Shown here piece after piece: positions 3,763 through 24,182 of a stretch of 64,000 bases of DNA. The stretch lies in assembly GCA_041665925.1 (NCBI GenBank), contig JBAYHW010000002.1:26838-90837 (forward strand). The letters are read 5' to 3'. The notes beneath the pieces were generated by a model. It did not search any database, was not told where the DNA came from, and saw only the letters and a list, made by a program, of their open reading frames with translations. The stretch's first letter is position 1, and every line of letters begins with the position of its first letter. This DNA is from Minisyncoccota bacterium (GTDB taxonomy: Bacteria > Patescibacteriota > Minisyncoccia > Phycocordibacterales > UBA9973). A program made the position numbers and the translations under genes.

Positions 3763-3994
3763 ACACATGTAATGAAAATTTCACAGCGTAACAACTTTTT
3801 CTTTTTTAACTTTAGCCCTAACCTTAGAGGTCAGATATTTGCGCTGTAAAAAAGAACTTAAACAAAAACTTACAACTCAAACACCTGCCCTCTAAGGGGT
3901 GGGTGTTTTCGTTTCTGCGTGTGGCAGGAGCGAAAGGGTAAAGGGGCTACCTATCATAAAGTCCTTAATGAGTTGTTCTTTGGGAGAAATAGCC

Positions 3995-4168
3995 ATGTTT
4001 GATATCTCCACCCAAGTTGAGTGCCGCGAATGCGGCGCGAAGTTCGATCCGTTTTTCGGGCATAACTGCCCGAAGCAGAACAGCGTTGCCGTGGCGCCGA
4101 CAGCGTCGCGACGGGAACGAATCAGCTCGGATTTCCCCGACACAGGGACGTCCAACTGGTCGAAGTAA
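3995..4168 (+). CDS. Small Cys/His-containing protein (57 aa), possible zinc-ribbon
   Basis: SD GGGAGA 7 nt upstream of the ATG. MFDISTQVECRECGAKFDPFFGHNCPKQ... has CxxC...H..C. GC-rich. Flanked by its own promoter and terminator. Confidence 0.4.
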   Translation: MFDISTQVECRECGAKFDPFFGHNCPKQNSVAVAPTASRRERISSDFPDTGTSNWSK

Positions 4169-4194
4169 TTATTCGACCAGATCACAAGGAAGGA

Positions 4195-4236
4195 GGGGGC
4201 GAAGTCTTAACCGACAAGCCCCCACCCCTTTTTCTT
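4195..4236 (+). terminator. Intrinsic terminator: stem GGGGGC/GCCCCC, then ACCCC and a T-run
   Basis: Hairpin and T-tract seen in sequence, directly downstream of the small ORF's stop codon. Confidence 0.45.
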
Positions 4237-4353
4237 AAAAAATATATGAAAAATAAAATTTTAAAATATAATAATTTTTTCTTCAGCGTCAGGATTTACC
4301 CCGAGAGCTGATTTTTGCGTTTAAAAATATCCTAACAAAATATTTTAAAAACA

Positions 4354-4380
4354 AACACCAGCTCTCGTAGAGCTGGTGTT
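4354..4380. promoter_or_regulatory. Perfect 11-12 bp hairpin AACACCAGCTCT / AGAGCTGGTGTT
   Basis: Perfect inverted repeat with a 3-5 nt loop and no following U-tract, ~90 nt upstream of the fusion gene start. It could be a regulatory or processing stem-loop. Confidence 0.3.
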
Positions 4381-4467
4381 CCCGTTTAGCGGGGACATTG
4401 ATCTTTGACAAGTGAATAGTTGTTCTTTTTACGTTGGGGTCAAATCCAAAGAAAGGAGGTGAAGAAA

Positions 4468-6039
4468 ATGAATCCTACAGAAGTTAAAATTGTCATGGAG
4501 ACAATCAAAAAGTCTCTAGGCAACGGCGAGGATGGCTATAACCTGGCGGCACTTCTAAGAAGTGCAATCCAGAAGAAGGTCGCAGAGCTTGAAAAAGAAC
4601 GAAAAGAGAGGGGGGAAGAGGAAATTCAAAGGAAACTCGCTCTCCCTATTCAGCGGGCGGACAAACTTCTTTCTTCTGTTCCACGCCTAGTACTGGAAGA
4701 GATAGACAGTTACACCCGAAGTCATAAATGGGGCGAGCTGTCAGTCTCAGCCCAGCAGAAGTTGCATGAACTGGGCGTTCTCGATCTGTGGGCGAAACGC
4801 CGGACTTACGGACCGGATGGTGGAGAGAAACCTTCAGTCAGCTGGTTTGAACCATTCGGGAAAGCTCTGAAAAATCTCATCTGTAACAAGGTAGATGAGT
4901 TGCGTCGAAGTGACGCAGAGGCCACAGAGGCAGCTCGACAAGCTAGGTTGCAGCCAGCCCAAGAGCTTTTGAATGAGCTTTTAGCAAAGTCCGTCAGGCT
5001 TTCGCTCGAAGATGCAAAAGCTTGTAAGGAGGCGCTGGAGAAGTGGATCGAGGACAATGCCTACCGGCCGTACAGTGGTGGCGGCGGGGGTGGGAGTGGT
5101 TGTGTGGTTTCTGATTCGCAAGAGCCGTTCTTGCGAGGGCGATGGGGCCCGCCTATGAAGTGGCCCCCAACAAATTTTTCGGAGAGACAAATGAATCCGA
5201 TCAAAATCGCAGTGGTGGGATTCGGGGATTTCGGTTCCCGATTCGTTAGGTGGCTCCGGAAAGCGAGAGTCGGTGTCGAAACCATCGCGGTGGTAGACCC
5301 GATTCCTGGGAAAATCTGGGGCCCCGCGGGCGTTCTCGTGAGCCCCAGCATCCACGCAATCTCGCAGCGGGTCCTTTCACAGGTGCAGGTCTTCGTCGAT
5401 TGCACTTCCAAAGGGCAAGGCAAGGAGAATCTTGGTCTGTACCAAGCGCTCGGCAGACCGGCCGTGTTTCAAAACGGCGAAGACCGAGCGCTGTGTCAGT
5501 TGTTCCGCGCGGGCTCGACATTTCTTGCGGGAGCGCCGTACCTCCGCATCCCGCAGTGCTCGGCGCTGGCGACAATGAGTGTGTTTGAAGCGCTTCATCC
5601 GCTTCTCGACATTCGTTCCGTCTACACGCTCCATGCCAAGATCAACAACAAAGACAAAATGCTCGGCCTGGGCGACAAGTCTGCGGCCGACATCACCACG
5701 CTCGCAGAGATTCCGGCGGTCGTTGACGTGTGGTACTTGCGAGAGAAGCCGAAGCAGGGCCGCACGCAGTACGTCTACCACGGCAATCTGCACTTTCAGT
5801 GTGGGGGTGCAATTCCGTCGGCGGATCGCATTCGGAAAGCGCTCATGGCGTCCCGTGTGCCACTGTGTACGCAGGAGCTCGACTCGCTGATTTCACCACG
5901 TCTCACGCAGACGCACGTGGTCGCGGAGAGCATTTCGGTTCAGGGAAACAGCGTTCGCATGAACGTGATTTCCTGGACACCGGAAGTGAACTTTCCACAA
6001 AACCTGGCCGCAATCAAATTGCTGGCCAAAGTTCTTTAA
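4468..6039 (+). CDS. Fusion protein: unknown coiled-coil N-domain + poly-Gly linker + archaeal type-II GAPDH-like NAD(P)-binding dehydrogenase domain
   Basis: Strong SD AAAGGAGGTG 8 nt upstream of ATG 4468 (the track ORF starts at 4420). C-terminal half has IAVVGFGDFGSR (Rossmann), VFVDCTSKGQGKENLGLYQALGRPAVFQNGED (archaeal GAPDH signature DCTP.G.G..N...Y...G..A.FQGGE) and a conserved Cys in RIPQCSAL at the position of catalytic SCNTT. N-terminal ~230 aa has no recognisable family. Linker is SGGGGGGSG. GC is ~58% against a ~35% background. Confidence 0.6.
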   Translation: MNPTEVKIVMETIKKSLGNGEDGYNLAALLRSAIQKKVAELEKERKERGEEEIQRKLALPIQRADKLLSSVPRLVLEEIDSYTRSHKWGELSVSAQQKLHELGVLDLWAKRRTYGPDGGEKPSVSWFEPFGKALKNLICNKVDELRRSDAEATEAARQARLQPAQELLNELLAKSVRLSLEDAKACKEALEKWIEDNAYRPYSGGGGGGSGCVVSDSQEPFLRGRWGPPMKWPPTNFSERQMNPIKIAVVGFGDFGSRFVRWLRKARVGVETIAVVDPIPGKIWGPAGVLVSPSIHAISQRVLSQVQVFVDCTSKGQGKENLGLYQALGRPAVFQNGEDRALCQLFRAGSTFLAGAPYLRIPQCSALATMSVFEALHPLLDIRSVYTLHAKINNKDKMLGLGDKSAADITTLAEIPAVVDVWYLREKPKQGRTQYVYHGNLHFQCGGAIPSADRIRKALMASRVPLCTQELDSLISPRLTQTHVVAESISVQGNSVRMNVISWTPEVNFPQNLAAIKLLAKVL

Positions 6040-6160: not shown

Positions 6161-7177
6161 ATGCCGAACGCAAGTCATATTAATTTAAACCCTTACCCAC
6201 TAATGCTTTATGGCAGTCCGAGTGGAGTCAAGCATAGTCTAGTCGTTAAGGTTGCGAAGTTGTTGAAAAAACCTCTTTCCCCCTCTACTTATAAAGAATT
6301 TAAAGACGGTTCATTTTTGGTTCATCACAATGATTCAGTTCGAGATCGTGACGTTTATTTAATTCTACAACCTCGCTTTGGTAACAGAGAAATTCTTTCC
6401 TATGATTTAGACGAATGCGAATCTATGGTTTTGGCGCTAAAGCAAGGAGAGCCAAGTCGTATTACAGTCGTTATCCCATGTCTGCCATATTCAAGGCAAG
6501 ACAGAGGGTCTAATCACCGAGAGCCTGTACTAGTGCAAAAAGTTCCTATGCGTCTTCAGATGGCTGGGGCACACCGTCTCGTAACACTCCGACTACACAA
6601 TCCAGCGAGCTATAATGCCCATCCTTCTACGATACCTATTGTCGATGTGAATGTAGACGACCTTCTGGTAAAACATATTCGTTCAAAAAAGTTTGATCTA
6701 AAAAAATTTAAAATAGTCGCCCCAGACTTAGGCGCTGCTCCTTCGTGCAGAAAGCTTGCTCGCGAGCTCGGTATCCCAGAAAATATAATTATCATAAATA
6801 AGGTGCGTGATCCGAAAAAAGCAAACCACAATGAAGTCATGGAAGTGATAGGAGATGCAAAAGGTTTTAACTGCATTATTCCTGACGACATGGCCGATAC
6901 GTGCGGTACGGCTATAAAATCACTTTATGCGCTAAAAGAAAATGGAGCCAAGGATGTATATTTTACAGCGACGCACGCTGTTCTGTCTGGGACAGCTGTA
7001 CAGGATTTAAATAAGGCTCCGTTTGCCGGTATTTGGTTTACAGATTCTTGCATAGAAGGGGAAAAAGGGAAAATAAAAAATCTTGAAATAATCTCTACTG
7101 CGAAACTAATCGCAAAGATCATTGATAATTTACATAATGGCAAGTCAGTCACCGAACTTTGGCATAATGGAAAATAA
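6161..7177 (+). CDS. prs: Ribose-phosphate pyrophosphokinase (PRPP synthetase)
   Basis: 338 aa. LPYSRQDR (ribose-5-P binding loop) and IPDDMADTCGT (PRPP-binding motif DDM.DTGGT) are present. Overall collinear with Prs. Confidence 0.8.
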   Translation: MPNASHINLNPYPLMLYGSPSGVKHSLVVKVAKLLKKPLSPSTYKEFKDGSFLVHHNDSVRDRDVYLILQPRFGNREILSYDLDECESMVLALKQGEPSRITVVIPCLPYSRQDRGSNHREPVLVQKVPMRLQMAGAHRLVTLRLHNPASYNAHPSTIPIVDVNVDDLLVKHIRSKKFDLKKFKIVAPDLGAAPSCRKLARELGIPENIIIINKVRDPKKANHNEVMEVIGDAKGFNCIIPDDMADTCGTAIKSLYALKENGAKDVYFTATHAVLSGTAVQDLNKAPFAGIWFTDSCIEGEKGKIKNLEIISTAKLIAKIIDNLHNGKSVTELWHNGK

Positions 7178-12014: not shown

Positions 12015-14591
12015 TCAATTAGGGGTATTTAAGAACTTTTCGATAATTTTTCGATCGCGTTTGAGCCAAACGATATTACCTTCGAGGCGTTCAAGGACCT
12101 GGGTGATGGCCCTGGAGGCCCCAGGGGCTTCGTGAATGCTGAAGAACTTACGGAAGCTATTTAGATGCTTCTGCTCGGCGCTACCGCTTATGGCCTTTAC
12201 AACCCTTGCTAGATTAAGTCCACCTTCACCGTAGCGAGATACGAGGGTTTTCCAATTCTTTTGAATAAAATTCCACCAAATGTCTCGGCCCAGGGGATTG
12301 GCTCCGATAGAAGAGAGGATGCCCATTGTGTCTTGCGGGCGGACATGTTTAGACATTGCGAATTCACAAGTTCTTTTTAATAATGTAGGACTTTTAAAAT
12401 CACCCAAAATTCCACCAATTCTATTTTTCTCTTCGTGCAGAGTTTCTTTTTTATATAAATTTATAAATTGATTGAATTCTTTTGTTCCACTGTGAGTCGC
12501 AACTATGCCGTATACTGCTCCACGAATGTCTGGAGAAATATTTTTTGTATTAAATTTCTTACGAGCTTCGGCAATTATTTTCTTATCACCGGCGTGTCCA
12601 GCACGAGAAATTGCAAGCGAGCGGAGCAATACATCCATATGGGCTTCTTTTGGTTTCTTTTGCCAGCTAAGTTTTAAAGCAAGAGGGGAGAAGAGGCCTA
12701 GAATTAATTTATTTAAATTATCTTCTGCTCCAGTTTTCACCAACAACTGCTCTAGTCGTGCTAGACCTGTGGCTATTTCTACCCAGACTGTGTAATTGTT
12801 TTCGTTTTTGTATGCTGATAAAAATTCTAAGGCATCGGTGGTGGGTATTGTTCCAGCTTCTGCCAGGGCAAATAAGTCACGAATGATTCCCAGCCTGTCG
12901 CTTGCGTTTAATTCTTTATTTTTAACTGGGGCGCGTAACTTTTCCAATAATTCCTTAGAGTAAGCGGTTCTATAAAATCCTGTTTCGCCGAAATTCAGTT
13001 TTATGTAAATATGAAAACCAAACTTTTTATCGGTACGGAATTTTTTAAGCTTAAAAATTCCTGAAGTCGGCTCGCCGTCGCTCGCCAAACCCCTAAAAAA
13101 GTTTGTTTTCATGTTCTGTATGGGAATATCCCAAACCGTTTTATTTTTGGCTTTTTTAGCAGATATTGGACTTGCAAAAAATCTTTCTTGCGACAATAGA
13201 AGTTCATTATTTTTTAGACTTGCTTTGACGACAGGGTAGCCGGGTTTGGATGTCCAATCGTGCATCATCTTAGCTACTGGTTTGCCTGAGACTTTTTCAA
13301 ATGCTTGCCATAGATGCAGAGTCGCCGTGTTTTTATAACTGTGCTTTTTTAAATAGAATCGCAGGCCGTCTCGGAAATCTTGCTCTCCTAAATAATTTGC
13401 GAGCATACGAATTATCGAGGCACCCTTGGAATACGATACCTCATCAAAAATTTCTCCAATTTCGTCTGGGTGGTGGACTTCTACTTCTATGGGGTGCGTA
13501 GTTTTAAGTGCATCAAGTCTAAGGGCAACACCAAGGTCGTTTGTGATGAACTGCGTCCAGATGTCCCACTTAGGGAAAAGTTTATCAACGGCAAGGTATT
13601 CAATGTATGAAGCGAAGCCTTCATTCAGCCATAAATGCGTCCACCATTCCATGGTTACTAAGTTGCCGAACCATTGATGGGCTAGCTCGTGGGCAACGAC
13701 AAGAGCCACCCATTGCTTATTTGATGCCGAAGAGTGGGCTTCGTCTACTAAAAGGGCGCTCTCGCGATAGGTGACTGCTCCCCAGTTCTCCATTGCCCCA
13801 GAAGAGAAGTCTGGAATCGCGATCATATCAAGAGCTGGTAAAGGATATTTAATATCAAAATACTTTTCATAAAATTCTAAAGTTTTCACAGCGCAATCAA
13901 GTGCGAACCTTGCTTGATGTTTTTTCCCTGGCACAGTAAATACTCTCACAAGGGTGCCATTTCTTGTCTTTGACTTTATATGTTCAAAATCTCCTACAAT
14001 GAAGGCTAGAAGGTAAGTGGACATCTTGGGCGTAGGGGAAAATTTAATGACATTATATCCTGATTCGTGTTCAAGCGTAGAGACCGGTAGGGTGTTTGAG
14101 ATTGCGGTTTTGCCCTTCGGCACAATAAGAGAAACGTGGAAGATAGCTTTATGTGTTGGCTCGTCAAAACAAGGAAAAGCTCGCCTAGCGTCTGTGGCTT
14201 CGAACTGGGTGGTTGCCATATGAAATTCTTTTTTATCAACGTTGTATTTACTTCTGTAAAAACCACGCATTTTGTCGTTCAAAATACCCTGGAACACGAG
14301 AGTAAGTTTTGTCTTGCCCTTAGGAATAATTTTTGGGAACGTAAATGTTGCTGTTTCGGACTTTTTGTCATATTTAATTTTTCCAAATAGTTTTTCTTTT
14401 CCAATTTCTATATCTACAGTTTCGATGTCTATTTCTTTACTATGCAACATTACTGTTATAGTTTTTTGCAAAATACTAAGATGTATAGTTTCTCGGCCAG
14501 AGAAAGTAAAGTTCTCTAGATCAGGTTTGAGCTCAATCTTATACTCGGTCGGTATGATATTTTTAGAAAGACGGACATTTTTCTTTTGCAT
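12015..14591 (-). CDS. pepN: Aminopeptidase N (M1 family zinc metallopeptidase)
   Basis: 858 aa. GAMEN exopeptidase motif (SSGAMENWG) and HEXXH-x18-E zinc motif (HELAHQWFGN...WLNEGFA). Confidence 0.9.
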   Translation of the reverse strand: MQKKNVRLSKNIIPTEYKIELKPDLENFTFSGRETIHLSILQKTITVMLHSKEIDIETVDIEIGKEKLFGKIKYDKKSETATFTFPKIIPKGKTKLTLVFQGILNDKMRGFYRSKYNVDKKEFHMATTQFEATDARRAFPCFDEPTHKAIFHVSLIVPKGKTAISNTLPVSTLEHESGYNVIKFSPTPKMSTYLLAFIVGDFEHIKSKTRNGTLVRVFTVPGKKHQARFALDCAVKTLEFYEKYFDIKYPLPALDMIAIPDFSSGAMENWGAVTYRESALLVDEAHSSASNKQWVALVVAHELAHQWFGNLVTMEWWTHLWLNEGFASYIEYLAVDKLFPKWDIWTQFITNDLGVALRLDALKTTHPIEVEVHHPDEIGEIFDEVSYSKGASIIRMLANYLGEQDFRDGLRFYLKKHSYKNTATLHLWQAFEKVSGKPVAKMMHDWTSKPGYPVVKASLKNNELLLSQERFFASPISAKKAKNKTVWDIPIQNMKTNFFRGLASDGEPTSGIFKLKKFRTDKKFGFHIYIKLNFGETGFYRTAYSKELLEKLRAPVKNKELNASDRLGIIRDLFALAEAGTIPTTDALEFLSAYKNENNYTVWVEIATGLARLEQLLVKTGAEDNLNKLILGLFSPLALKLSWQKKPKEAHMDVLLRSLAISRAGHAGDKKIIAEARKKFNTKNISPDIRGAVYGIVATHSGTKEFNQFINLYKKETLHEEKNRIGGILGDFKSPTLLKRTCEFAMSKHVRPQDTMGILSSIGANPLGRDIWWNFIQKNWKTLVSRYGEGGLNLARVVKAISGSAEQKHLNSFRKFFSIHEAPGASRAITQVLERLEGNIVWLKRDRKIIEKFLNTPN

Positions 14592-14613
14592 AAAGAAATG
14601 TTAGCATATAAGG

Positions 14614-15369
14614 GTGAATGAGCAAACTTATCAAATAAAAACCGCTGGTTTTGAGGGCCCTTTTGGCTTACTTTTGGACTTAATAGAAAAGCGCAAGCTT
14701 CATATAAATGATGTATCTTTAGCGGAAGTTACCGAGGAATACCTAGAGCATATGAATAAGATGGGCGGGTTAAGCCCCGCAGAAATTTCTAGCTTTGTGC
14801 TCGTGGCTTCGACTTTACTTTTAATCAAATCAAAATCACTCTTGCCGAATCTTGACCTTACCTCCGAAGAAGAAGGAGATATCAAGAGCCTGGAAGAAAG
14901 GCTTCGTCTGTATGAACTATTTACAAGATTGGGGGGAAATATAAAAAGTAATTTCGGAAAGAAAATAATCTTTGCTCCACTAGAAAGAAAAAATGATTTC
15001 TTGGTTTTTCTTCCTGACGACAGTATAACACCAGAATCCATGATGACTTTCGCTAGGAACGCCCTAGGAGCTATGCCGAAAAAAGTTTTCTTGCCAGAAG
15101 TGGAAGTGCGCAAGGTGATAAGTATAGAAGAAATGATAGATAATTTAACCAAAAGAATTACAAAATCACTGAAAATGAATTTCAAGGATTTACATGGCCA
15201 CAATGGTGGGGTTCATTCAAAAGAAGAAAAAATAGTTGTAATTGTTGGATTTCTTGCTATGCTTGAACTTGTAAGACAGGGGATAATGGATGCTACACAA
15301 AATGAGATTTTTGAGGATATTTTTATAGAGAAGACTGAAGTAATTATTGAAAATACAGATGAACAATAG
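14614..15369 (+). CDS. scpA: Segregation and condensation protein A (kleisin)
   Basis: 251 aa. N-terminal FEGPFGLLLDLIEKRKLHINDVSLAEVTEEYL is the conserved ScpA N-terminus. Confidence 0.85.
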   Translation: MNEQTYQIKTAGFEGPFGLLLDLIEKRKLHINDVSLAEVTEEYLEHMNKMGGLSPAEISSFVLVASTLLLIKSKSLLPNLDLTSEEEGDIKSLEERLRLYELFTRLGGNIKSNFGKKIIFAPLERKNDFLVFLPDDSITPESMMTFARNALGAMPKKVFLPEVEVRKVISIEEMIDNLTKRITKSLKMNFKDLHGHNGGVHSKEEKIVVIVGFLAMLELVRQGIMDATQNEIFEDIFIEKTEVIIENTDEQ

Positions 15370-15934
15370 TCTAGAAAACAAAATAGAAGCAATACTTTTC
15401 TTTAAGGGTGAACCGGTATCTTTTAAAAAATTAGAAGATATTTTGCAAGTTTCCAAGAACGAAATTAAAGATGCTATTTTTAATTTAAAAAATAATTTAG
15501 AAAATAGGGGAGTGGTGCTTTTAGAACAAGGTGAAGAGATAACACTTGGCACCGCACCCGAATTTTCTAAACTCATAGAACATTTACAGAAAGAAGAATT
15601 GAATAAGGAACTTTCTAAAGCATCGCTAGAAACACTTTCAATTGTTTTATATAAAAATGGAGCTAGTCGAGCAGAGATTGATTATATTCGCGGAGTAAAT
15701 TCTAGCTTCACTCTACGTGCACTTTCTGTGCGCGGGCTAGTAGAAAAGACCCTAGATCCGAAGGACAACAGGCGATATATCTATAAACCAAGCTTTGATC
15801 TTATTTCATTTATGGGAGTTACATCTGTGGAAGAACTGCCAGATTATTCAGAAGTGATCAACGGTATTGAAATCGCCACTAAGACCCTAGAAGAAGAAAC
15901 AAAAAAAGAGGAAGCAAATGCAAGCGCAAACTAA
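15347..15934 (+). CDS. scpB: Segregation and condensation protein B
   Basis: 195 aa. IEAILFFKGEPVSFKKLEDIL... and a second winged-helix GASRAEIDYIRGVNSSFTLRALSVRGLVEK, typical of ScpB. Overlaps scpA. Confidence 0.85.
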   Translation: MKIQMNNSLENKIEAILFFKGEPVSFKKLEDILQVSKNEIKDAIFNLKNNLENRGVVLLEQGEEITLGTAPEFSKLIEHLQKEELNKELSKASLETLSIVLYKNGASRAEIDYIRGVNSSFTLRALSVRGLVEKTLDPKDNRRYIYKPSFDLISFMGVTSVEELPDYSEVINGIEIATKTLEEETKKEEANASAN

Positions 15935-17669
15935 AACCTGCCAAAATTGCAAAAACGACTTCACCATAGAGCCGGACGATTTTGGATTTTATGAAAAAAT
16001 AATAGTTCCTCCACCGACCTTTTGCCCGGAGTGTAGACTGCAAAGGAGGCTCGCTTGGAGGAATGAAAAAAGTTTGTATAGTCGAGAATGTGATTTATGT
16101 AAAAAGAAGATGATTTCTATATACAGCGTAGAGGCGAAATCTTTGGTTTATTGCAATCAATGCTGGTGGGGCGATGGATGGGAAGGAAATCAGTACGCAA
16201 TGGATGTGGATTTCTCAAGACCTTTTCTGAATCAGTTTTTTGATCTTTTCCATAAAGTTCCTGCTCCCAACCTTTTTGCGTTTAGTAAAAATATGGTTAA
16301 TTCCCAATATTGCAACATGGCCAACGATATGAGAAATTGTTATTTGGTCCACGATGGAACCTTTGACGAAAACGTTTCTTATGGTAGTGGAGTTTTTCAT
16401 TCCAAAGATTCTCAAGACGTTACAATGGTTCGTAAATGTGAGCTGTGTTATGAAATTATAACCTGCATTAATTGCTACCATACTACTTTTTCACAGCAGT
16501 GTGAGGATTGCGTTGACGTACACTTTTCTTTTGGGCTAAGGGGTTGCAACAATTGTTTTGGTTGCGTGAACTTACACAAGCAGAGTTATTGTATTTTCAA
16601 TGAACAATATACCAAAGAGGAATATGAAGAAAAATTGAAATCGTTTGGAATTGATTCTTATAAAAAGGTGAATGAATTGAAAGATAAGGTACACGAGTTC
16701 TGGAAAAAATTCCCCAAGAGATATTATTTTGGTGTTCAAAATTTAAACGTAACGGGTGACTATCTTGAGCATTCTAAAAACGCAAAGTCCTGTTTTGGTG
16801 CAGCAAATTTAGAAGATTCAAAATTTTGTTCATTTGTTTCGAACGGACCAGTAAAAACAACTTATGATTTTACCCATTACGGAGATAACATAGAACTAGT
16901 CAACGAATCTTTGCAGTCAGGAGACGGCATATATAATATAAAATGTGGTTGGGGCACATGGACTAATTCAAGGAATGTGAATTACGGCATTACTTGTCCA
17001 GGAGTTTCAGATATTTTTGGATGTGTTGGGGTTAAGAAAAAACAATATTGTATTTTAAATAAACAATATACTAAAGAAGAATACAAAGAATTGGTTTCAA
17101 AAATTATTAAACATATGAATGAGATGCCTTACATTGATAAGAAAGGCAGAATTTATAAATATGGTGAATTCTTCCCAGTAGATTTTTCACCTTTTGGATA
17201 CAATGAAACGACTGCGCAAGAATATTTTCCCCTAGATCAAGCGCAAGCAATTGCAAAAGGTTACAATTGGAAAGAAAACAAGGAACGAAATTATCACATA
17301 ACAAAAGATTCAGAAGAACTTCCTGATAATATCAATGAAATTGCTGACTCACTTTTAGACGACGTAATTGGCTGTGCACACAAGGGAAGATGTGAAGATG
17401 ACTGTATGACTGCTTTTAAAATTTTATCCGAGGACTTGAAATTTTACCGACGAATGAATTTGCCCTTACCCAGACTTTGCCCCAACTGCAGACGCTACCA
17501 GAGAATAAAATTAAGGAATCCGCTCAAACTTTGGCACAGGCAATGCATGTGTGATAAAAAGCACCCTAACCACGAAGGAAAATGCGAAGTAGAATTCGAA
17601 ACTTCCTACGCACCCGATAGACCAGAAATAATTTATTGCGAAAGTTGTTATAACAAAGAAGTCTACTAA
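15918..17669 (+). CDS. Large cysteine-rich protein (583 aa, ~36 Cys mostly as CxxC pairs), unknown family; paralog A
   Basis: N-terminal zinc-ribbon module CQNC...FYEKIIVPPPTFCPECRLQRRLAWRN...CDLC. Homologous C-terminal module FYRRMNLPLPRLCPNCRRYQRIKLRNPLKLWHRQCMC. Central Cys-rich repeats end in YCIFNEQYTKEEYEE / YCILNKQYTKEEYKE. Overlaps scpB stop by 17 nt. Confidence 0.7.
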   Translation: MQAQTKTCQNCKNDFTIEPDDFGFYEKIIVPPPTFCPECRLQRRLAWRNEKSLYSRECDLCKKKMISIYSVEAKSLVYCNQCWWGDGWEGNQYAMDVDFSRPFLNQFFDLFHKVPAPNLFAFSKNMVNSQYCNMANDMRNCYLVHDGTFDENVSYGSGVFHSKDSQDVTMVRKCELCYEIITCINCYHTTFSQQCEDCVDVHFSFGLRGCNNCFGCVNLHKQSYCIFNEQYTKEEYEEKLKSFGIDSYKKVNELKDKVHEFWKKFPKRYYFGVQNLNVTGDYLEHSKNAKSCFGAANLEDSKFCSFVSNGPVKTTYDFTHYGDNIELVNESLQSGDGIYNIKCGWGTWTNSRNVNYGITCPGVSDIFGCVGVKKKQYCILNKQYTKEEYKELVSKIIKHMNEMPYIDKKGRIYKYGEFFPVDFSPFGYNETTAQEYFPLDQAQAIAKGYNWKENKERNYHITKDSEELPDNINEIADSLLDDVIGCAHKGRCEDDCMTAFKILSEDLKFYRRMNLPLPRLCPNCRRYQRIKLRNPLKLWHRQCMCDKKHPNHEGKCEVEFETSYAPDRPEIIYCESCYNKEVY

Positions 17670-17703
17670 TTCCCCCATATCAGCCATGGCGTAAATGAGG
17701 GAA

Positions 17704-18528
17704 TTACAGGCACTCGGGGTTAATACCAAGTACGTAATCGTTTACGAGATTCATTCTTTTTACGTTCTCATCACCGGCAAAACCAGCTATGTCATTATTA
17801 GTCACTAGAGCTTTATATTTTTCAGTAAACTCTTTTGCAAGAGGTAAGTAAGACCAGTGCCACTTTTCTTCATTGTAGCCAGTGGGGCGAGCTTGGCCTT
17901 TTGCAGTATACGGCTGACAGAATCCAAAGCTGGCAGCATTGACGACTAGCCACTCATAAACTTTTCTTCCTGCTTCTGTCTGGAAGTAGTAGGGGACTGT
18001 CATGTTTATATCTATATCTGTGCCCCAATGGTGCCTGGAGGTGCTAGGCACTGAGCTATATTCTAATATTTTCTTAAATCTTTCTAAGCCGTCAGGAATG
18101 GATTCATTTAATTTCTTTCCGTCAACTAAAGTAACACCTGTCCATTTATCATCCCAAATCTTTTTCTGGGAATTGAAATTTCTCACAGCAGAAACTATCT
18201 GTAGATCCACATTTTCTTTTTTAGCTGTTTCGGCCATTTGAATAAAAGCTTCTAGGGCTTCCTTTCTTAAATATGTCGTGTACCCGCTCATGTTGTATTC
18301 TTTAGGGACGTGTACGAAATCTTCTCTATCGCTCGGATTAAATTTACCCAACAAATAAAGCCTCGTTTCTGCGTCTTTTTTAAGCTGTTGCTCAATCAAT
18401 ATTTTTTGTTTAACAATTTCCTCCTCTTTTTGTTTTTTTAACGCTGAAATTGAGGAATTTATCATCATTCCGCCAATAACTACCAACAAAACCAAAGGAA
18501 AAATGTATTTTATAATATCTTTTTTCAC
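17704..18528 (-). CDS. VanY-like D-alanyl-D-alanine carboxypeptidase (peptidase M15B), membrane-anchored
   Basis: Motifs SAVRNFNSQKKIW (SxxRS..Q), SRHHWGTDIDIN (SxHxxGxAxD) and FGFCQPY...EEKWHWSY (YGF...EPWHxxY). N-terminal TM anchor. Start taken as GTG at 18528. The track ORF extends to 18735, but that stretch overlaps the neighbouring gene start and looks non-coding. Confidence 0.7.
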   Translation of the reverse strand: MKKDIIKYIFPLVLLVVIGGMMINSSISALKKQKEEEIVKQKILIEQQLKKDAETRLYLLGKFNPSDREDFVHVPKEYNMSGYTTYLRKEALEAFIQMAETAKKENVDLQIVSAVRNFNSQKKIWDDKWTGVTLVDGKKLNESIPDGLERFKKILEYSSVPSTSRHHWGTDIDINMTVPYYFQTEAGRKVYEWLVVNAASFGFCQPYTAKGQARPTGYNEEKWHWSYLPLAKEFTEKYKALVTNNDIAGFAGDENVKRMNLVNDYVLGINPECL

Positions 18529-18564
18529 TCGCAAAGAATAGCATATTTTGGTACAATTTACTAA

Positions 18565-20301
18565 ATGAAGGCGGAAATTAAAGTTTGTCAAAACTGCAAG
18601 AGTGATTTTACGGTAGAGCCGGATGATTTTGGATTTTATGAAAAAATCAAAGTTCCTCCACCGACCTTCTGTCCGGATTGTAGGAGACAGAGACGCTGGG
18701 CTTGGCGGAACAACATGTCGCTCTATAATCGACAATGTAAGTCCTGCGGCAAAGGCGTGATTTCACTTTACCATCCTGATTCAGGCCTAACTGTTTATTG
18801 TAATAAGTGTTGGTGGAGCGACAAATGGGATTCAAAAAGTTTTGGCGTAGATTATGATTTTTCAAAACCATTTTTTACTCAATTCCGAGAACTTATAGGA
18901 AAAGTTCCACACATGTCTATTGTAAATGATAATGATATTGCAAGTTTAAATTGCGAATATACCCACGACTGGTGGTTCTCTAAGAATTGCTATATGTGTT
19001 TTTCTGGGTGGAATACAGAGAATATAATGTATAGTTTTTTTATTCTTGCTGGTAGAGATATGGTTGACTGTATGAACATAAGATCAAAAAGTGAGCAGTT
19101 ATATGAATGTATTATTTGTTCGCATGGTTACCAAGTTAAAAATTCAATTTATTCTAGTTCTTGTTTGAATTCACAATTTTTATATTGGTGTAAAAATTGC
19201 AGTGATTGTTTTTTGTGTTCAGAATTAGTTGGTAAAAAATATTGTTACAAGAATGAGCAATATTCAGAAGAAGAATACGAAAAGATTTTAAAAGAATATA
19301 GATTAGATACTTGGAGCGGGGTAGAGCGGGCTCAAAAAGAATATGATGAATTTATTTTAAAATTTCCTAGAAAATATAGTAATTCTATTCGGAACTTAAA
19401 TTGTACTGGAGAGCTAGTATCTGATTCAAAGAATTCAAAAAATTGTTTTGTGACAAAAAATGCGGAAAATTGTAGATATAATGAATATTCGGGAGATGGT
19501 AATAATTCAAATAAAGATTGCTACGATATTACAACCACAGGTGGAGTATCGGAATGTTATGAATGTGTTGTTGGAGATCACTCGCAGTTTAATTTGTTTG
19601 GACTTTTTTCGGTTAAAAGTCAAGATATAAAATATTGTCAGCATTGTCATAACTGTAAACATTGTTTCGGGTGCGTCGGGTTGCGCAATGCGAATTATTG
19701 TATTTTTAATAAACAATATACCAAGAAAGAATATGAGGAGTTAGTGCCTAAAATAATTAGACATATGAATGACATGCCTTATGTCGACAAAAGAGGAAAT
19801 GAGTATAAATTTGGGGAGTATTTTCCTGTAGAGCTTTCGTATTTTGGATATAATGAATCCTGCGCAATGGAACAATTTCCCCTTGATAAACAGAAAGTCC
19901 TTGAGAACAAATATAATTGGCAAGACAATATTCAGCGAACAACAGGGAAGGAAACACTAGAATCAGACAAAATTCCCGAAAGTATAGATGAAGTAAACGC
20001 TTCAATACTGAAGGAAGTGCTAGCTTGTATAGAATGCCACAGAAACTACAAAATAGTTCCTAATGAATTAATATTCTACAGAAAAATGAAGATTCCTATT
20101 CCGAGAAAGTGTTTTTATTGTCGTCATGAGGCTAGAATTAAAAGAAATAATCCTTTTAAACTCTGGCATAGGCAATGTATGTGTGATAAGAAACATCCAC
20201 ATCACGAAAAGAAGTGCGGGATAGAATTTGAGACGAGTTACGCACCCGATAGACCGGAGATAGTGTACTGTGAAAAATGTTATCAAGCGGAAGTTTATTA
20301 G
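18565..20301 (+). CDS. Large cysteine-rich protein (578 aa), paralog B of 15918-17669
   Basis: Collinear with paralog A. MKAEIKVCQNCKSDFTVEPDDFGFYEKIKVPPPTFCPDCRRQRRWAWRN... at the N-terminus and ...NPFKLWHRQCMCDKKHPHHEKKCGIEFETSYAPDRPEIVYCEKCYQAEVY at the C-terminus are near-identical to A. Central CxxC repeats with YCIFNKQYTKKEYEE. Confidence 0.7.
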   Translation: MKAEIKVCQNCKSDFTVEPDDFGFYEKIKVPPPTFCPDCRRQRRWAWRNNMSLYNRQCKSCGKGVISLYHPDSGLTVYCNKCWWSDKWDSKSFGVDYDFSKPFFTQFRELIGKVPHMSIVNDNDIASLNCEYTHDWWFSKNCYMCFSGWNTENIMYSFFILAGRDMVDCMNIRSKSEQLYECIICSHGYQVKNSIYSSSCLNSQFLYWCKNCSDCFLCSELVGKKYCYKNEQYSEEEYEKILKEYRLDTWSGVERAQKEYDEFILKFPRKYSNSIRNLNCTGELVSDSKNSKNCFVTKNAENCRYNEYSGDGNNSNKDCYDITTTGGVSECYECVVGDHSQFNLFGLFSVKSQDIKYCQHCHNCKHCFGCVGLRNANYCIFNKQYTKKEYEELVPKIIRHMNDMPYVDKRGNEYKFGEYFPVELSYFGYNESCAMEQFPLDKQKVLENKYNWQDNIQRTTGKETLESDKIPESIDEVNASILKEVLACIECHRNYKIVPNELIFYRKMKIPIPRKCFYCRHEARIKRNNPFKLWHRQCMCDKKHPHHEKKCGIEFETSYAPDRPEIVYCEKCYQAEVY

Positions 20302-20339
20302 GTATTTCTTAAAAAAGGTTAAAATGATATGATATATCC

Positions 20340-21395
20340 ATGCTTTTGAATTTGGTTAAAATTTCAATACCGACAGCTTTTGCTTTCTTTCTTGGCTTTT
20401 TACTTACTCCCATTGCCACGCATTTCTTCTACAAATACAAAATGTGGAAGAAGTATTCTAGGAACCTAGATGCTAAGGCACAGGATTTTCATAAAATACA
20501 CAACGAGCAAGATGAGCTTAAAACCCCACGAGTAGGAGGAATAATTATTTGGTTTTCTGTTCTATGCACTACACTCGTTTTTTATTTATTGTTTATTTTT
20601 TTTCCTTCGACCAGCTCCGCGAAGATGAATTTCTTAAGTCGTAATCAAACCTTGATACCATTTTTTACTTTACTGCTTGGGTCACTCATTGGGCTCTGGG
20701 ACGATTTGATACAAATATATGGAAAAGGAAAATTTGCTCGAGATGATAAGTCGTGGCGAATTTGGAAAATTATATTGGTATCAGTTATGTCATTTTTTAT
20801 TGGCTTTTGGTTTTTCTATAAGCTGGGGATGGATTCTTTTCACATTCCATTCGGGGGAGAAATTTTTATTGGTATTTTAATTATTCCATTTTTTATGTTG
20901 GTGGCCTTGGCGACATTTTCCGGTGGAGTTATCGATGGCATTGACGGTCTTTCCGGTGGAGTTCTATCTTCAATCTTTGGCGCTTATGCAGTGATAGCTC
21001 TCGCCAATAATCAGATAGACCTGGCAGCATTTTCGGGAGTTATAATGGGGGCGATTTTGGCATTTTTGTGGTTTAATATTCCGCCGGCGAGATTTTATAT
21101 GGGAGAGACAGGGATAATGGGGCTGACTATTACCCTAGCTACGCTCGCATTTCTGACTGATTCGATTTTAATTTTGCCAATAGTTGCATTACCACTTGTT
21201 ATAACCTCGGCTTCTGTGATTCTTCAACTTGTTTCTAAAAAATTCCGAGGGGGGAAAAGATTGTTTAAGCTGGCACCACTTCACCACCACCTAGAAGCTA
21301 TCGGGTGGTCTTCTTATAAAATTACTATGCGTTTTTGGATTTTCTCAGTCATGTTTGCGGTCGTAGGAATTATTTTAGCAATTATTAGTCGATAG
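20340..21395 (+). CDS. mraY: Phospho-N-acetylmuramoyl-pentapeptide transferase
   Basis: 351 aa polytopic membrane protein. DGIDGLSGG (MraY DG.DGLA motif) and LAPLHHHLEAIGW (PIHHHFE.GW). Confidence 0.88.
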   Translation: MLLNLVKISIPTAFAFFLGFLLTPIATHFFYKYKMWKKYSRNLDAKAQDFHKIHNEQDELKTPRVGGIIIWFSVLCTTLVFYLLFIFFPSTSSAKMNFLSRNQTLIPFFTLLLGSLIGLWDDLIQIYGKGKFARDDKSWRIWKIILVSVMSFFIGFWFFYKLGMDSFHIPFGGEIFIGILIIPFFMLVALATFSGGVIDGIDGLSGGVLSSIFGAYAVIALANNQIDLAAFSGVIMGAILAFLWFNIPPARFYMGETGIMGLTITLATLAFLTDSILILPIVALPLVITSASVILQLVSKKFRGGKRLFKLAPLHHHLEAIGWSSYKITMRFWIFSVMFAVVGIILAIISR

Positions 21396-21412
21396 ATAAT
21401 TTAGTGAGATAA

Positions 21413-22513
21413 ATGAAAGAAAAAAAAGTAGATAAATTTTTCTTAATAATTATATTTATTTTACTCGCCTTTGGCGTGGCAATGTTTATTTCGGCGTCTT
21501 TAGGGGTTCTGGCGAAAAATGCAAATATTTTTTATTCCATACTTTTTAGTCAGCTGATCCTAGGGCTTGGGCTGGGATTGGTAGGTATGTACATTGCTTC
21601 AAAAATACATTATAAAGTTTGGCGTAATTTTTCTTTTCTAATTTTTTTGGCATCCATACTTCTAACTGCTGCGGTTTTTATACCTTCTTTTGGGTGGAGT
21701 CATGGAGGAGCCCAGAGGTGGATACAGATAGGAGGTTTTACTTTTCAACCTGTTGAATTTTTAAAATTTGGTTTTGTGATTTATTTTGCAGCATGGTTAT
21801 CTTGGGTGAAAACCAGGGTAGGGGATTTCAGATTTGGAATCTTACCCTTCGGTATTATGTTAGCGGTTATTGCCTTTGTTTTATTAAAGCAACCAGATAC
21901 AAAAAGCTTTATTTTGATTACAATTACTGGGATTTCCATGCTTTTCCTTTCTGGGGTTCCGATTAAATATATTTTCGGTGTTGGCTTTGGGGTAGTATTT
22001 TTATTGGCTGGGCTTGTGTATTATAAACCATACTTACAAGATAGGGTTAAAACTTATATTAATCCAAGTGCAGATGCTCGAGGATCTTCTTATCAAATTC
22101 AGCAATCGTTTATTGCTCTCGGCTCGGGCGGGGTATTAGGAAGGGGATTTGGTCAAAGCGTTCAGAAATTCGGCTACCTTCCTGAACCGCAAGGAGATTT
22201 TATTTTTGCTGTTATGGGAGAAGAACTTGGTTTTGTCGGCGGGCTGGTGACTATATTTTTATATCTTTTATTTTTATTGCGAGGGTTTCGTATTGCGAAC
22301 AGGTCGCCAGATTTGTTCAGTGGACTTTTAGTCTACGGAATTGTTATACTCATTACTGTACAGTCGTTTATGCACATTGCTTCGGTTACTGGAGTGTTCC
22401 CGTTGACGGGGGTGCCCCTAGTTTTTATGAGTCAGGGGGGGACTTCGCTTATGGTATATCTGGTCGCAATAGGTATTGTATTTAACGTATCAAAATTTCA
22501 AAAAAATTTATGA
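21413..22513 (+). CDS. ftsW: SEDS-family peptidoglycan glycosyltransferase FtsW/RodA
   Basis: 366 aa, ~10 TM helices. Conserved FIFAVMGEELGFVGG and the MSQGG.S motif typical of FtsW/RodA. Confidence 0.85.
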   Translation: MKEKKVDKFFLIIIFILLAFGVAMFISASLGVLAKNANIFYSILFSQLILGLGLGLVGMYIASKIHYKVWRNFSFLIFLASILLTAAVFIPSFGWSHGGAQRWIQIGGFTFQPVEFLKFGFVIYFAAWLSWVKTRVGDFRFGILPFGIMLAVIAFVLLKQPDTKSFILITITGISMLFLSGVPIKYIFGVGFGVVFLLAGLVYYKPYLQDRVKTYINPSADARGSSYQIQQSFIALGSGGVLGRGFGQSVQKFGYLPEPQGDFIFAVMGEELGFVGGLVTIFLYLLFLLRGFRIANRSPDLFSGLLVYGIVILITVQSFMHIASVTGVFPLTGVPLVFMSQGGTSLMVYLVAIGIVFNVSKFQKNL

Positions 22514-23640
22514 AAATAGTTTTTACAGGAGGAGGCACCGGAGGACATTTCTATCCAATAATTGCTGTCGTCCAAAAAGTAAATCAAATCATTGATCGGG
22601 AGCACATAGTCGGTGCAAAATTATACTATATTTCTGATAGTCCTTACGACAAAGAAGTTTTAATGGAAAACGGGCTGCTATACGAAGGAATAATTACCGG
22701 CAAGATGCGGACGTACTTTTCCTTTAAAAACTTTTCCGATGTTTTTAAAATATTTTTCGGCACTATCAATGCAATTTATAAATTGTTTTCTATTTATCCA
22801 GATGTGGTTTTCGGTAAGGGCGGATATGCGTCATTTCCGACAATCTGCGCGGCGAGATTTTTACGTATTCCTGTTATTATCCATGAATCTGATTCTGCTC
22901 CAGGACGGGTAAATAGATGGGCAGGAAAATTTGCTAAAAAAATTGCCGTCTCGTTTCCTGAGGCCGTAGAATATTTCCCCAAAGATCGCACAGCTTGGAC
23001 AGGGCAACCAATAAGAACTGAAATAGAAAACAGAGCTCCTAGAGAAGAAGCTCTAGAATATTTCAAACTTGAATCAAACTTGCCAGTGATTTTTATTACT
23101 GGAGGTTCACAAGGGGCAGAACTAATAAATAATGCCATCCTAGACGCCTTGCCAAAACTAGTAGAAAATTATCAGGTTATTCATCAAACTGGAGTGAAAA
23201 ATTTCCCTACGACTTCAGGACAAGCCGAGGTGGTTCTCTCTGGCAATAAACATAAATCTAGATACTTACCTTTTCCTTTTTTAAACGTTCTACAGATGAA
23301 AATGGCGGCTGGGGCAGCAACTATAATAATTTCACGCGCCGGATCTACGCTGTTTGAAATTGCGGCTTGGAACGTACCCTCAATTTTAATTCCTTTTACG
23401 AATTCCAATGCTGATCATTCTAAGAAAAATGCTTTTAATTACGCTAGAGCCGGAGCATGTAGTGTCATAGAAGAAGCAAATATGACTGCCAATATTCTAA
23501 ATTCTGAAATTGAGAGAATTTTAACTGATAAGCAAGGTTATGAACAAATGAAGCAGAGCGCTATAGCTTTCAATAAACCTGGTGCGGCGGAAAAAATCGC
23601 CCGTGAAATAGTAGATATTGCTCTCAGCCACGAGAAGTAA
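22510..23640 (+). CDS. murG: UDP-N-acetylglucosamine--N-acetylmuramyl-(pentapeptide) pyrophosphoryl-undecaprenol N-acetylglucosamine transferase
   Basis: 376 aa. N-terminal VFTGGGTGGHFYPIIAV and C-terminal GT-B fold region (ISRAGSTLFEIAAWNVPSILIP). Confidence 0.88.
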   Translation: MKIVFTGGGTGGHFYPIIAVVQKVNQIIDREHIVGAKLYYISDSPYDKEVLMENGLLYEGIITGKMRTYFSFKNFSDVFKIFFGTINAIYKLFSIYPDVVFGKGGYASFPTICAARFLRIPVIIHESDSAPGRVNRWAGKFAKKIAVSFPEAVEYFPKDRTAWTGQPIRTEIENRAPREEALEYFKLESNLPVIFITGGSQGAELINNAILDALPKLVENYQVIHQTGVKNFPTTSGQAEVVLSGNKHKSRYLPFPFLNVLQMKMAAGAATIIISRAGSTLFEIAAWNVPSILIPFTNSNADHSKKNAFNYARAGACSVIEEANMTANILNSEIERILTDKQGYEQMKQSAIAFNKPGAAEKIAREIVDIALSHEK

Positions 23641-23705: not shown

Positions 23706-24182
23706 ATGTTTCAGAAGTTCGTGTCTCTGGGGGAGTTCAGCAAACTCTCACATAAAGACAAAACGGTTGTGATGACCACTGGGGTGTTTGACGTGCCACA
23801 CGTAGGGCATCCACGCTACTTATACACGGCAAGGATGCTGGGCGACCTGCTCGTGGTCGGAGTGCATTCCGACGAGCTGGTTCGCCAGAGGAAGGGTGAA
23901 GGACGACCGATTTACCCACTGGAAGAGCGGGTGGAGTTGTTGTCTTATTACGGTTGCGTGGACTTCATCCTGGAACTCAAAGACCAGGAAGATGTCTATG
24001 GGACGATCCGGACCGTAAGGCCAAAAATCCTAGTGGTGTCGACGACCACTGAGGACGAGGCCAACAGCCCGGCCACCATGAGCTCAATGTTCGGCGACAG
24101 CATGGCGGTTGCCGTACTCGGGCCACAGTCATTCCGACACACGACAGATCTCGTCGAAAAACAGGAGGTGATCGAAAAATGA
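23706..24182 (+). CDS. Cytidylyl/adenylyltransferase-like protein (RfaE domain II / TagD-like nucleotidyltransferase), GC-rich
   Basis: 158 aa. TTGVFDVPHVGHPRYLYTARMLGDLLVVGVHSDELVRQRKGEGRPIYPLEERVELL matches the HIGH-type nucleotidyltransferase core of heptose-1-P adenylyltransferase / glycerol-3-P cytidylyltransferase. SD GGAGGAG upstream. GC ~54% against ~35% in the flanks. Confidence 0.65.
   Translation: MFQKFVSLGEFSKLSHKDKTVVMTTGVFDVPHVGHPRYLYTARMLGDLLVVGVHSDELVRQRKGEGRPIYPLEERVELLSYYGCVDFILELKDQEDVYGTIRTVRPKILVVSTTTEDEANSPATMSSMFGDSMAVAVLGPQSFRHTTDLVEKQEVIEK

Follow-up and report, generated by a model that had tools for sequence, protein, structure and literature searches.

Two genes for cysteine-rich proteins lie on the forward strand of a 64,000-nucleotide stretch of DNA (hereafter, the window) from a Minisyncoccota bacterium of the phylum Patescibacteriota (GenBank assembly GCA_041665925.1, contig JBAYHW010000002.1, positions 26,838 to 90,837). 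The two, which we call A and B, belong to one protein family, of which the 64-kb window holds exactly two copies by tblastn, and they are arranged with their immediate neighbors as follows.

14614-15934, + strand: scpA (14614-15369) and scpB (15347-15934), directly upstream of A (PF02616 and PF04079)
15918-17669, + strand: family member A, an open reading frame (ORF) of 583 amino acids with 36 cysteines (NCBI WCT44_01490, "hypothetical protein," Candidatus Paceibacterota)
17704-18528, - strand: VanY-type M15 D-Ala-D-Ala carboxypeptidase with an N-terminal membrane anchor (PF02557, E value of 2e-30)
18565-20301, + strand: family member B, an ORF of 578 amino acids with 42 cysteines and the same architecture as A (WCT44_01500)
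20340-23640, + strand: mraY (20340-21395), ftsW (21413-22513), and murG (22510-23640), ORFs whose orthologs in syntenic loci are assigned by Pfam

Domain architecture and cysteine sites

A and B are paralogs that align end to end (45% identity and 63% positives by BLASTP), with N and C termini as nearly identical as a preliminary description of this DNA had quoted them. Its estimate of roughly three dozen cysteines per protein also agrees with our counts of 36 in A (6.2% of residues) and 42 in B (7.3%), compared with 1.2% in the window's other long ORFs, and the central motif that it gave as YCIFN.QYTK.EYEE is present, in the form YCI[FL]N.QYTK.EYEE, twice in each protein. Its statement that almost all of the cysteines fall in CxxC pairs, however, went too far, since such motifs account for 21/36 cysteines in A and 29/42 in B (58 to 69%). 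The parts of A, with their gene coordinates, are these.

15918-16202, + strand: N-terminal double-finger module, residues 1-95 (sub-threshold Pfam matches, hhalign, and cysteine co-occurrence), with finger 1 at C8/C11/C36/C39 (CxxC-x24-CxxC, zf_Tbcl-like) and finger 2 at C58/C61/C79/C82 (CxxC-x17-CxxC, zf_Tbcl_2-like)
16278-16712, + strand: predicted beta-solenoid half 1, residues 121-265, with the capping motif CNNCFGCVNL..YCIFN and the helix YTKEEYEE
16713-17123, + strand: predicted beta-solenoid half 2, residues 266-402, with the cap FGCVG..YCILN and a helix
17124-17357, + strand: conserved acidic alpha/beta domain, residues 403-480, with the motif MPYxDxxGxxYxYGEFFP..FGYNET (conservation profile)
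17358-17666, + strand: C-terminal double-finger module, residues 481-583 (conservation, hhalign, and cysteine co-occurrence), with finger 3 at C486/C496/C521/C524 and finger 4 at C543/C556/C574/C577

This architecture is internally repeated at two levels: hhalign finds the N-terminal module (residues 10-83) to be homologous to the C-terminal module (residues 495-578; 99.1%, E value of 4e-19), and a profile-profile comparison does the same for central half 1 (residues 113-242) and half 2 (residues 264-395; 99.6%, E value of 6e-24). The AlphaFold2 model of A, built on a 117-sequence alignment, has a predicted local distance difference test score (pLDDT) of 83.4 and a predicted template modeling score of 0.83, with pLDDT values above 90 in the finger modules and in residues 360-480, including most of the acidic domain. 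Conservation across the family is among its highest at residues 361-402.

The cysteines sort into two kinds when their co-occurrence, which we used in place of Cys-Cys distances in the model, is scored over 189 full-length family members. The quartets of finger 1 and finger 4 are complete in 182/189 and 186/189 members, respectively, and their loss is rare; that of finger 3 is complete in 164/189, with C496, C521, and C524 lost jointly (r of 0.93 to 0.95), and that of finger 2 in 108/189, with C61, C79, and C82 lost jointly (r of 0.98 to 1.00). Judged by this pattern, the 16 finger cysteines behave as four all-or-none Cys4 structural zinc sites. The solenoid cysteines, on the other hand, are weakly correlated (r of ≤0.43) and, because they are individually dispensable, appear in these alignments as a degenerate ladder rather than as discrete metal sites. 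Their spacings fall strictly on multiples of 3 residues, with maxima at 3, 9, and 12, and hence fit a solenoid coil of ~12 residues that carries a cysteine ladder inside. The "multi-zinc-ribbon giants" of the preliminary description are thus only partly right: four Cys4 fingers are present, but the other 20 or so cysteines are in the two beta-solenoids, and the protein is, on the predicted structure, a zinc-finger-capped double beta-solenoid and not a string of zinc ribbons.

Across the family, the number of cysteines ranges from 22 to 45 per protein, many aromatic residues are invariant, and polar residues other than cysteine are also conserved. No signal peptide or transmembrane segment is predicted in the family proteins, which are thus expected to be soluble. 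The whole protein is mildly acidic (isoelectric point [pI] of 6.3), and the segment at residues 383-480, the acidic domain, strongly so (median net charge of -7). The finger modules are the sole net-basic parts (net charge of +2 or +3), but at a pI of 8.3 to 8.4 the idea that they are strongly basic was rejected.

Distribution, age, and gene neighbors of the family

The family is large and essentially restricted to Patescibacteria, as the preliminary description anticipated in calling it lineage-specific. Word-indexed searches return at least 7,970 matches for A and at least 6,395 for B, and an exhaustive profile search recovers 4,858 clusters at 50% identity with E values of ≤1e-3 and 2,130 with E values of ≤1e-30, the top 150 of which are all full-length (550 to 600 amino acids). 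All named matches are Patescibacteria (Paceibacterota, Nomura-, Staskawicz-, Jorgensen-, Giovannoni-, Wolfe-, Lipton-, Sungii-, and Magasanikbacteria, and Minisyncoccia). Among GTDB species genomes, there are at least 589 relatives, and 77 of the 78 listed loci are labeled Patescibacteria, candidate phyla radiation (CPR)-type, or unassigned, some of them merely as "bacterium" or "uncultured bacterium." The sole locus with a non-CPR label (L027; CAYJLM010000079.1, 7.4 kb, GC content of 46%) comes from a third-party assembly named "uncultured Gammaproteobacteria" and has two family genes next to a PolX/PHP polymerase and a VapBC-like pair; the contig may have been binned wrongly, or the family may truly extend beyond the lineage.

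No existing description covers these proteins, as their being called uncharacterized had implied. Homologs are named "hypothetical" or "uncharacterized" in the databases; Pfam and NCBIfam give only sub-threshold finger matches to A and B and no match at the family level; single-protein and profile sequence searches of the PDB found none; and no relatives were detected in phage, plasmid, or IMG/VR viral collections. A literature search found no description of the family nor of its finger Pfam families, and the "Knotted Solenoid" (PNAS 2026), considered as a relative, was rejected as comprising small Brevundimonas pentapeptide-like proteins. No characterized family, fold, or system accounts for these proteins, although their parts, zinc fingers and a solenoid, are already known elements.

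Orthologs of A are 70 to 80% identical to A and those of B 64 to 73% identical to B, each set forming a separate orthogroup. Given this separation and the 45% identity between A and B, sequence comparison makes them ancient paralogs and not a local or recent tandem duplicate, contrary to what their proximity had suggested ("duplicated in tandem"). Nearly all ortholog pairs are saturated at synonymous sites, which left nonsynonymous divergence (dN) as the quantity to compare; a dN/dS ratio between the paralogs A and B, one of the checks proposed earlier, is meaningless at 45% identity. The dN values of A and B orthologs (0.14 to 0.22) match those that the same pairs of genomes give for murG, scpA, and ftsW, and the constraint is by this measure at the housekeeping level.

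The same antiquity extends to the arrays in which the genes often occur. At 49/81 loci, 2 to 11 same-strand copies lie within 10 kb on either side; L003, for example, has 11, and in a Joint Genome Institute (JGI) contig 8 copies follow one another without a break. Consecutive copies are separated by a median gap of 6 bp, and 38% overlap. The best identity of a copy has a median of 44% within its own locus (maximum of 61%) versus 59% between loci, 94% of copies are closer to a relative in another genome, and two members of one cluster at ≥55% identity occur together in only 4 of 48 multicopy loci. Since copies differ more within a locus than between loci, the arrays are, by sequence identity, old sets of distinct subfamilies that have been differentially retained; the genes are chromosomal, and such operon-like sets number 2 to 11 or more paralogs.

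Conservation differs sharply by region. In the solenoid halves, identity is 0.58 to 0.81 within a subfamily and 0.29 to 0.30 between A and B (a within/between ratio of 2.3 to 2.5), compared with 0.68 to 0.74 and 0.57 to 0.60 in the finger modules (ratio of 1.2 to 1.3) and a ratio of ~1.3 (1.26 to 1.27) in the core at residues 361-480. Within subfamily A, conservation peaks in solenoid half 1 (0.81), followed by the cap and helix at residues 361-402 (0.77) and half 2 (0.76), whereas between A and B it is lowest in the solenoid halves; 17 of the 27 positions fixed differently in A and B are in the solenoids and none is in the N-terminal fingers. Because they are conserved within subfamilies and divergent between them, the solenoids are, on this pattern, constrained subfamily-specific surfaces and not relaxed spacers, and the fingers and core, by the same reasoning from alignments, do something common to all paralogs.

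The neighborhood of A and B recurs, although only in a Nomurabacteria-like clade. Its consensus order is M1 peptidase (- strand), scpA, scpB, zero to three family genes, VanY (- strand), a family gene, zero or one further family gene, mraY, ftsW, murG, gltX, and an M23 peptidase gene, as found in L009, L021, L082, L083, and L084. A variant in L001 (GCA_028718635.1) has a family gene between ftsW and murG (15732-17483) and three copies after scpB, so family genes can occupy different slots of the division and cell wall (dcw) cluster; the mraY-ftsW-murG block is otherwise invariant. A check of synteny that had been proposed thus gives a divided answer: the order is conserved and not unique to this genome, but the scpAB/VanY/mraY arrangement is confined to this clade. 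Members of the B subfamily occupy the VanY-divergent slot in all four genomes that have them (the window, L082, L083, and L084), while orthologs of A are found elsewhere, after dnaJ in L004 and at another location in L025. The genes flanking these slots in L009 and L021 share 70 to 80% identity with their counterparts in the window, but the family genes that fill the slots share only 45 to 50% with A or B. Gene order thus suggests that the scpAB/VanY/mraY position is a clade-specific location and not a defining partnership.

The details of these junctions bear on several earlier remarks. The end of scpB does overlap the ATG of A, by 17 nucleotides, but this overlap is not kept in the relatives L001 and L082, which have gaps of 18 to 23 bp. 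The peptidase between A and B is membrane anchored and convergent with A, as described, whereas relative to B it is divergent. The likeliest start codon is the GTG at 18528, giving 274 amino acids, because homologs measure 270 to 282; with this start, the divergent VanY-B intergenic region is 36 bp (18529-18564), whereas the mechanically called ORF, which extends to 18735, implied an overlap. Similarly short divergent gaps (30 to 58 bp) occur in L082 to L084. A TACAAT hexamer at 18552-18557 lies ~7 nucleotides upstream of the ATG of B, whose transcript could on this account be leaderless or nearly so, and a promoter and terminator scan of 14400-20500 returned fewer sites than shuffled controls. 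B was correctly placed directly upstream of the mraY-ftsW-murG block, its stop codon being 38 nucleotides from mraY.

Family-wide neighbors were surveyed by clustering 1,098 flanking ORFs, called with a simple longest-ORF heuristic. The commonest is a VirD4/TraG-like ATPase resembling type IV coupling proteins (T4CPs), present in 28/82 loci, encoded on the same strand as the family gene and passing the Pfam thresholds for TrwB_AAD_bind, DUF87, TraG-D_C, and T4SS-DNA_transf. Of its 38 genes, 27 adjoin a family gene and 37 lie within two genes of one; when nonfamily genes are shuffled within loci, 15.3 ± 2.4 adjacencies are expected and 0/2000 shuffles reach 27. A short form (~490 amino acids) and a long form (~700 to 830 amino acids) exist, and 14/15 long forms are adjacent. 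The long form, which lies between dnaK and a family gene (e.g., L029 4560-6746; loci L004-L081), has a CxxC-x17-CxxC finger at ~455-478, as in family fingers 2 and 4, and a disordered K/P/E-rich tail of 200 to 350 amino acids with a conserved C-terminal ...EVPEDVLKKVLE; the short form, just upstream of dnaJ or CutA (e.g., L029 11837-13375), has neither finger nor tail nor C-terminal motif. We asked if the loss of finger 2 is tied to an upstream finger-bearing long ATPase, but the difference (4/10 versus 101/179) is not significant (Fisher P = 0.34). The ATPase has no N-terminal transmembrane anchor and no signal peptide and is thus predicted to be soluble, and neither virB4 nor other type IV secretion system (T4SS) genes are among the recurrent neighbors of the family. 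A survey of Patescibacteria likewise counted 5,713 VirD4-like genes in 2,918 genomes, only 148 of them near virB4 (PMC12102498).

The second specific neighbor is CutA1 (PF03091), which adjoins a family gene in 9/9 cases against 3.9 ± 1.2 expected (0/2000 shuffles reach 9), often in the order short ATPase, CutA, family gene (L005, L008, L017, L045, L050, L062, L075, and others). DnaK, DnaJ, CysS, PerM, agmatinase, and a sigma-like gene recur nearby but were rejected as specific partners, their adjacency being no higher than chance, and the remaining neighbors are ordinary housekeeping genes. Upstream of the short ATPase in L005, L017, L045, L050, L051, and L079 is a cassette comprising a sigma70-region-4 plus HARE-HTH protein, c10 (463 amino acids, membrane anchored at its N terminus), and c13 (172 amino acids), the latter two without a Pfam match; these genes may be further parts of the same system.

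Other features of the window concern the family less directly. A candidate third copy, the 564-amino-acid ORF at 31374-33068, was rejected as a penicillin-binding protein transpeptidase. The window also has, between murG and gltX, a small CTP_transf_like (cytidylyltransferase-like) gene (23706-24182, + strand), and genes of this kind encoding 144 to 149 amino acids head or sit within long family arrays in unrelated genomes (L003 11782-12216 and the JGI contig of P0090), though none is present in L082 to L084; it may be recurrently associated with the family. A GC-rich block at ~3900-6000 (50 to 60% GC versus ~37% across the remaining window) contains a 539-amino-acid ORF (4420-6039, + strand) that has no Pfam match and a C-terminal half of Rossmann-like appearance (KIAVVGFGDFG). 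This ORF separates a class I tRNA synthetase gene (1807-2763) from prs (6161-7177), two genes that adjoin in the syntenic locus L084, and it is probably a horizontally acquired insertion.

A tentative adaptor role and its alternatives

The pattern of regional conservation, the ancient multiparalog sets, and the adjacency to an ATPase lead us to propose, tentatively and at less than even confidence, that these proteins make up a repertoire of cytoplasmic recognition adaptors or scaffolds with zinc-finger handles and paralog-specific solenoid faces, the shared partner of which would most likely be the VirD4-like ATPase. The finger modules and the core at 361-480 would then be the constant handles by which all paralogs dock on one partner, for which the adjacent soluble ATPase, its long form bearing the same CxxC-x17-CxxC finger, is the likeliest candidate, and the two solenoid surfaces would make each paralog specific for a client or ligand of its own. 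In the clade of the window, two members would have settled in the scpAB/VanY/mraY-ftsW-murG neighborhood.

Several observations weigh against this proposal. Gene order is the sole source for both the partner and the clients, and because loci share ancestry, the adjacency statistics (27/38 and 9/9) overstate the number of independent events. No T4CP-like gene is present in the 64-kb window, nor within 10 kb in 54/82 loci, and the ATPase is therefore not an obligatory neighbor. No single subfamily fills the slot next to it either, and a dedicated pairing of one subfamily with the ATPase was accordingly rejected. The solenoid coils are modeled with moderate confidence (pLDDT of 58 to 74), the finger modules are basic to so small a degree that they tell little about a docking partner, and specific homo- or hetero-oligomer interfaces would likewise account for solenoids that are conserved subfamily by subfamily.

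In a more ambitious version of the adaptor proposal, which we regard as unlikely, orphan soluble VirD4/TraG-like hexameric ATPases, to which most of the 5,713 "T4CP" genes without a linked T4SS would belong, and up to a dozen zinc-finger-capped solenoid adaptors, often with CutA1, would form an unrecognized cytoplasmic machine, each adaptor bringing the motor its own kind of client, be it protein, nucleic acid, or envelope precursor, in a core, lineage-defining process.

Of comparable standing, and similarly on the unlikely side, is the possibility that the proteins bind or bridge nucleic acids, the finger modules contacting DNA or RNA and a rigid solenoid core setting the spacing or adding specificity, in chromosome organization or RNA handling alongside SMC-ScpAB and FtsK/TraG-type DNA translocases. 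The fingers belong to the zinc-ribbon/treble-clef type, homologs carry the name "Zn ribbon nucleic-acid-binding protein" in one source, a conserved basic motif (RxxRR..RN) lies downstream of fingers 1 and 3, and the finger modules are, as noted above, the only net-basic parts of the protein. A also begins within the end of scpB, family genes follow scpB in L001, L009, and L082, and the most specific neighbor is an ATPase of the VirD4/TrwB type; ATPases of this type are DNA-dependent translocases. However, the basicity is slight and the protein as a whole acidic, no known DNA- or RNA-binding family is matched at any threshold, the scpAB adjacency is limited to one clade (orthologs of A being elsewhere in L004 and L025), and many zinc ribbons mediate protein-protein contacts.

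Somewhat more doubtful is a structural role, in which the paralogs, as bactofilin-like cytoskeletal solenoids, would form homo- or heteropolymers or scaffolds that organize division, wall synthesis, or segregation in cells lacking many canonical divisome parts. The clade of the window embeds these genes in the dcw cluster (with VanY, mraY, ftsW, murG, and an M23 peptidase nearby), the constraint is at the housekeeping level, and the subfamily-specific solenoid surfaces could be polymer interfaces. Yet the dcw context is that of one clade, no Pfam Bactofilin match was obtained, and open-ended head-to-tail stacking is disfavored by the caps at the two ends of the solenoid, which consist of conserved motifs, helices, and finger modules.

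We consider it improbable that the proteins handle zinc or copper as cytoplasmic buffers, stores, or metallochaperones that use their many cysteines. Such a function would suit the 22 to 45 cysteines per protein, the four Cys4 sites, the excess adjacency of CutA1 ("divalent ion tolerance"; 9/9 versus 3.9 ± 1.2 expected), and the presence of cysS in the wider neighborhood of 10 loci. But cysS is directly adjacent in 0/10 of these, the solenoid cysteines are individually dispensable and uncorrelated (r of ≤0.43), the conserved aromatic and polar non-cysteine residues and subfamily-specific surfaces are unlike those of metallothionein-type stores, and buffering needs no ten or more ancient paralogs.

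Two further accounts are very improbable. Translocated effectors or variable surface or host interaction proteins, substrates of the VirD4-like coupling protein, are suggested by the tight adjacency to a T4CP-like ATPase, by arrays that resemble effector or antigenic-variation families, and by the episymbiotic life of Patescibacteria, but the arrays are ancient with no recent duplication, the orthologs evolve as slowly as MurG and FtsW, neither the family nor the ATPase has a signal peptide or transmembrane segment, the C terminus is a conserved folded zinc finger rather than a disordered secretion signal, no virB4 or other T4SS genes are among the recurrent neighbors, and the family is absent from mobile elements. 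Equally weak is the preliminary description's own account, a dedicated system with VanY, scpAB, and mraY that arose by local tandem duplication, for which the order scpA-scpB-[family gene]-VanY(-)-family gene-mraY-ftsW-murG in L009, L021, L082, L083, and L084 (with its variant in L001) and the constant slot of the B subfamily speak, but against which stand the separate orthogroups of the 45% identical A and B, the different subfamilies in the same slots of L009 and L021 despite neighbors 70 to 80% identical, and the many family members across Patescibacteria, the majority, that lack these neighbors.

Patescibacteria make up a large share of bacterial diversity, with genomes of ~1 Mb or less and a biology mostly deduced from absences. 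The family likely marks a core process specific to them, because it is conserved like cell wall and division enzymes and takes up to ~19 kb (11 genes) of a small genome. Were the multiadaptor machine real, it would represent a core, lineage-defining process of minimal cells, built on a cysteine-ladder solenoid fold without a solved counterpart. The linkage to the ATPase offers a testable handle on two questions at once, the role of an orphan ATPase without a secretion system and that of the cysteine-rich proteins, and the family is well suited to structure determination and to a new curated model, from which the annotation of thousands of genomes would gain.

Comparison with known proteins and folds

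The fingers come closest to curated families, in each case below the cutoff (15 to 20 bits for zf_Tbcl and zf_Tbcl_2 versus cutoffs of 24 to 27). Fingers 1 and 3 share the CxxC-x24-CxxC pattern of zf_Tbcl (PF13451), which scores 15.2 bits (E value of 0.021) at residues 5-44 of A against a gathering score of 24 bits and has matches, all below the cutoff, in 4/18 members (best E value of 0.003). Fingers 2 and 4 share with zf_Tbcl_2 and TIGR04272 the CxxC-x17-CxxC spacing, which is exact (17 residues between C61 and C79 and between C556 and C574), as well as the signature ..P...[RK]P.[VI]YC..C; in B, zf_Tbcl_2 (PF23477) scores 20.2 bits at residues 54-84 (E value of 5e-4; cutoff of 27) and TIGR04272 scores 11.9 bits (cutoff of 36). 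Known proteins with zf_Tbcl or CxxC-x17-CxxC domains are small and stand-alone, whereas here four fingers make up about one-third of a protein of 580 amino acids. In small proteins of Methanosarcina mazei, the CxxC-x17-CxxC domain binds zinc as measured by inductively coupled plasma mass spectrometry (PMC12704099).

On the AlphaFold2 model, the central region belongs to the beta-solenoid class at the level of fold. The solenoids with which we compared it (the Tenebrio molitor antifreeze protein, 1ezg; that of spruce budworm, 1m8n; the ice-binding 3ult; curli CsgA, 8c50; left-handed beta-helix [LbetaH] acyltransferases; gamma-carbonic anhydrase; and bactofilin) have 2 to 16% identity to it and align over at most 137/583 residues, and what sets the family apart is that its own solenoid is duplicated and flanked by finger modules. 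Insect cysteine-rich antifreeze proteins of the T. molitor type (TmAFP) are secreted and built of 12-residue TCTxSxxCxxAx coils, with a disulfide per coil and a TxT ice-binding face. The family is not of this type; it lacks both the TxT motif and a signal peptide, and disulfides in its solenoid are unlikely because the protein is cytoplasmic. The absence of hexapeptide, pentapeptide, and bactofilin (PF04519) Pfam matches likewise sets it apart from the hexapeptide transferases, gamma-carbonic anhydrases, and bactofilins.

Comparison with functional classes gives a similar picture. Metallothionein-like stores are small, with ~20 to 30% cysteine, few aromatics, and clustered thiolate sites, unlike these proteins, with 6 to 7% cysteine, many invariant aromatics, and uncorrelated solenoid cysteines. 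There is no significant match to PADLOC or PHROG profiles, and this, together with their absence from mobile elements, sets them outside anti-phage defense and phage-encoded families. They do not behave as T4SS effectors or VirD4 substrates either, given the lack of T4SS genes among the recurrent neighbors, the folded C terminus, the housekeeping rate, and the ancient paralogs. The ATPase itself departs from classic coupling ATPases in having no N-terminal transmembrane anchor and in not lying beside virB4 or T4SS genes, and among the partners of T4CP, HerA, and FtsK ATPases, those known for T4CPs (relaxase, TraM, and effector) do not resemble the family. A further parallel is one of evolutionary pattern and purely an analogy, without a relationship in sequence or fold: adaptors built of F-box and leucine-rich repeats, pentatricopeptide repeats, or pentapeptide repeats also combine common terminal modules with subfamily-specific repeat surfaces in many paralogs per genome.

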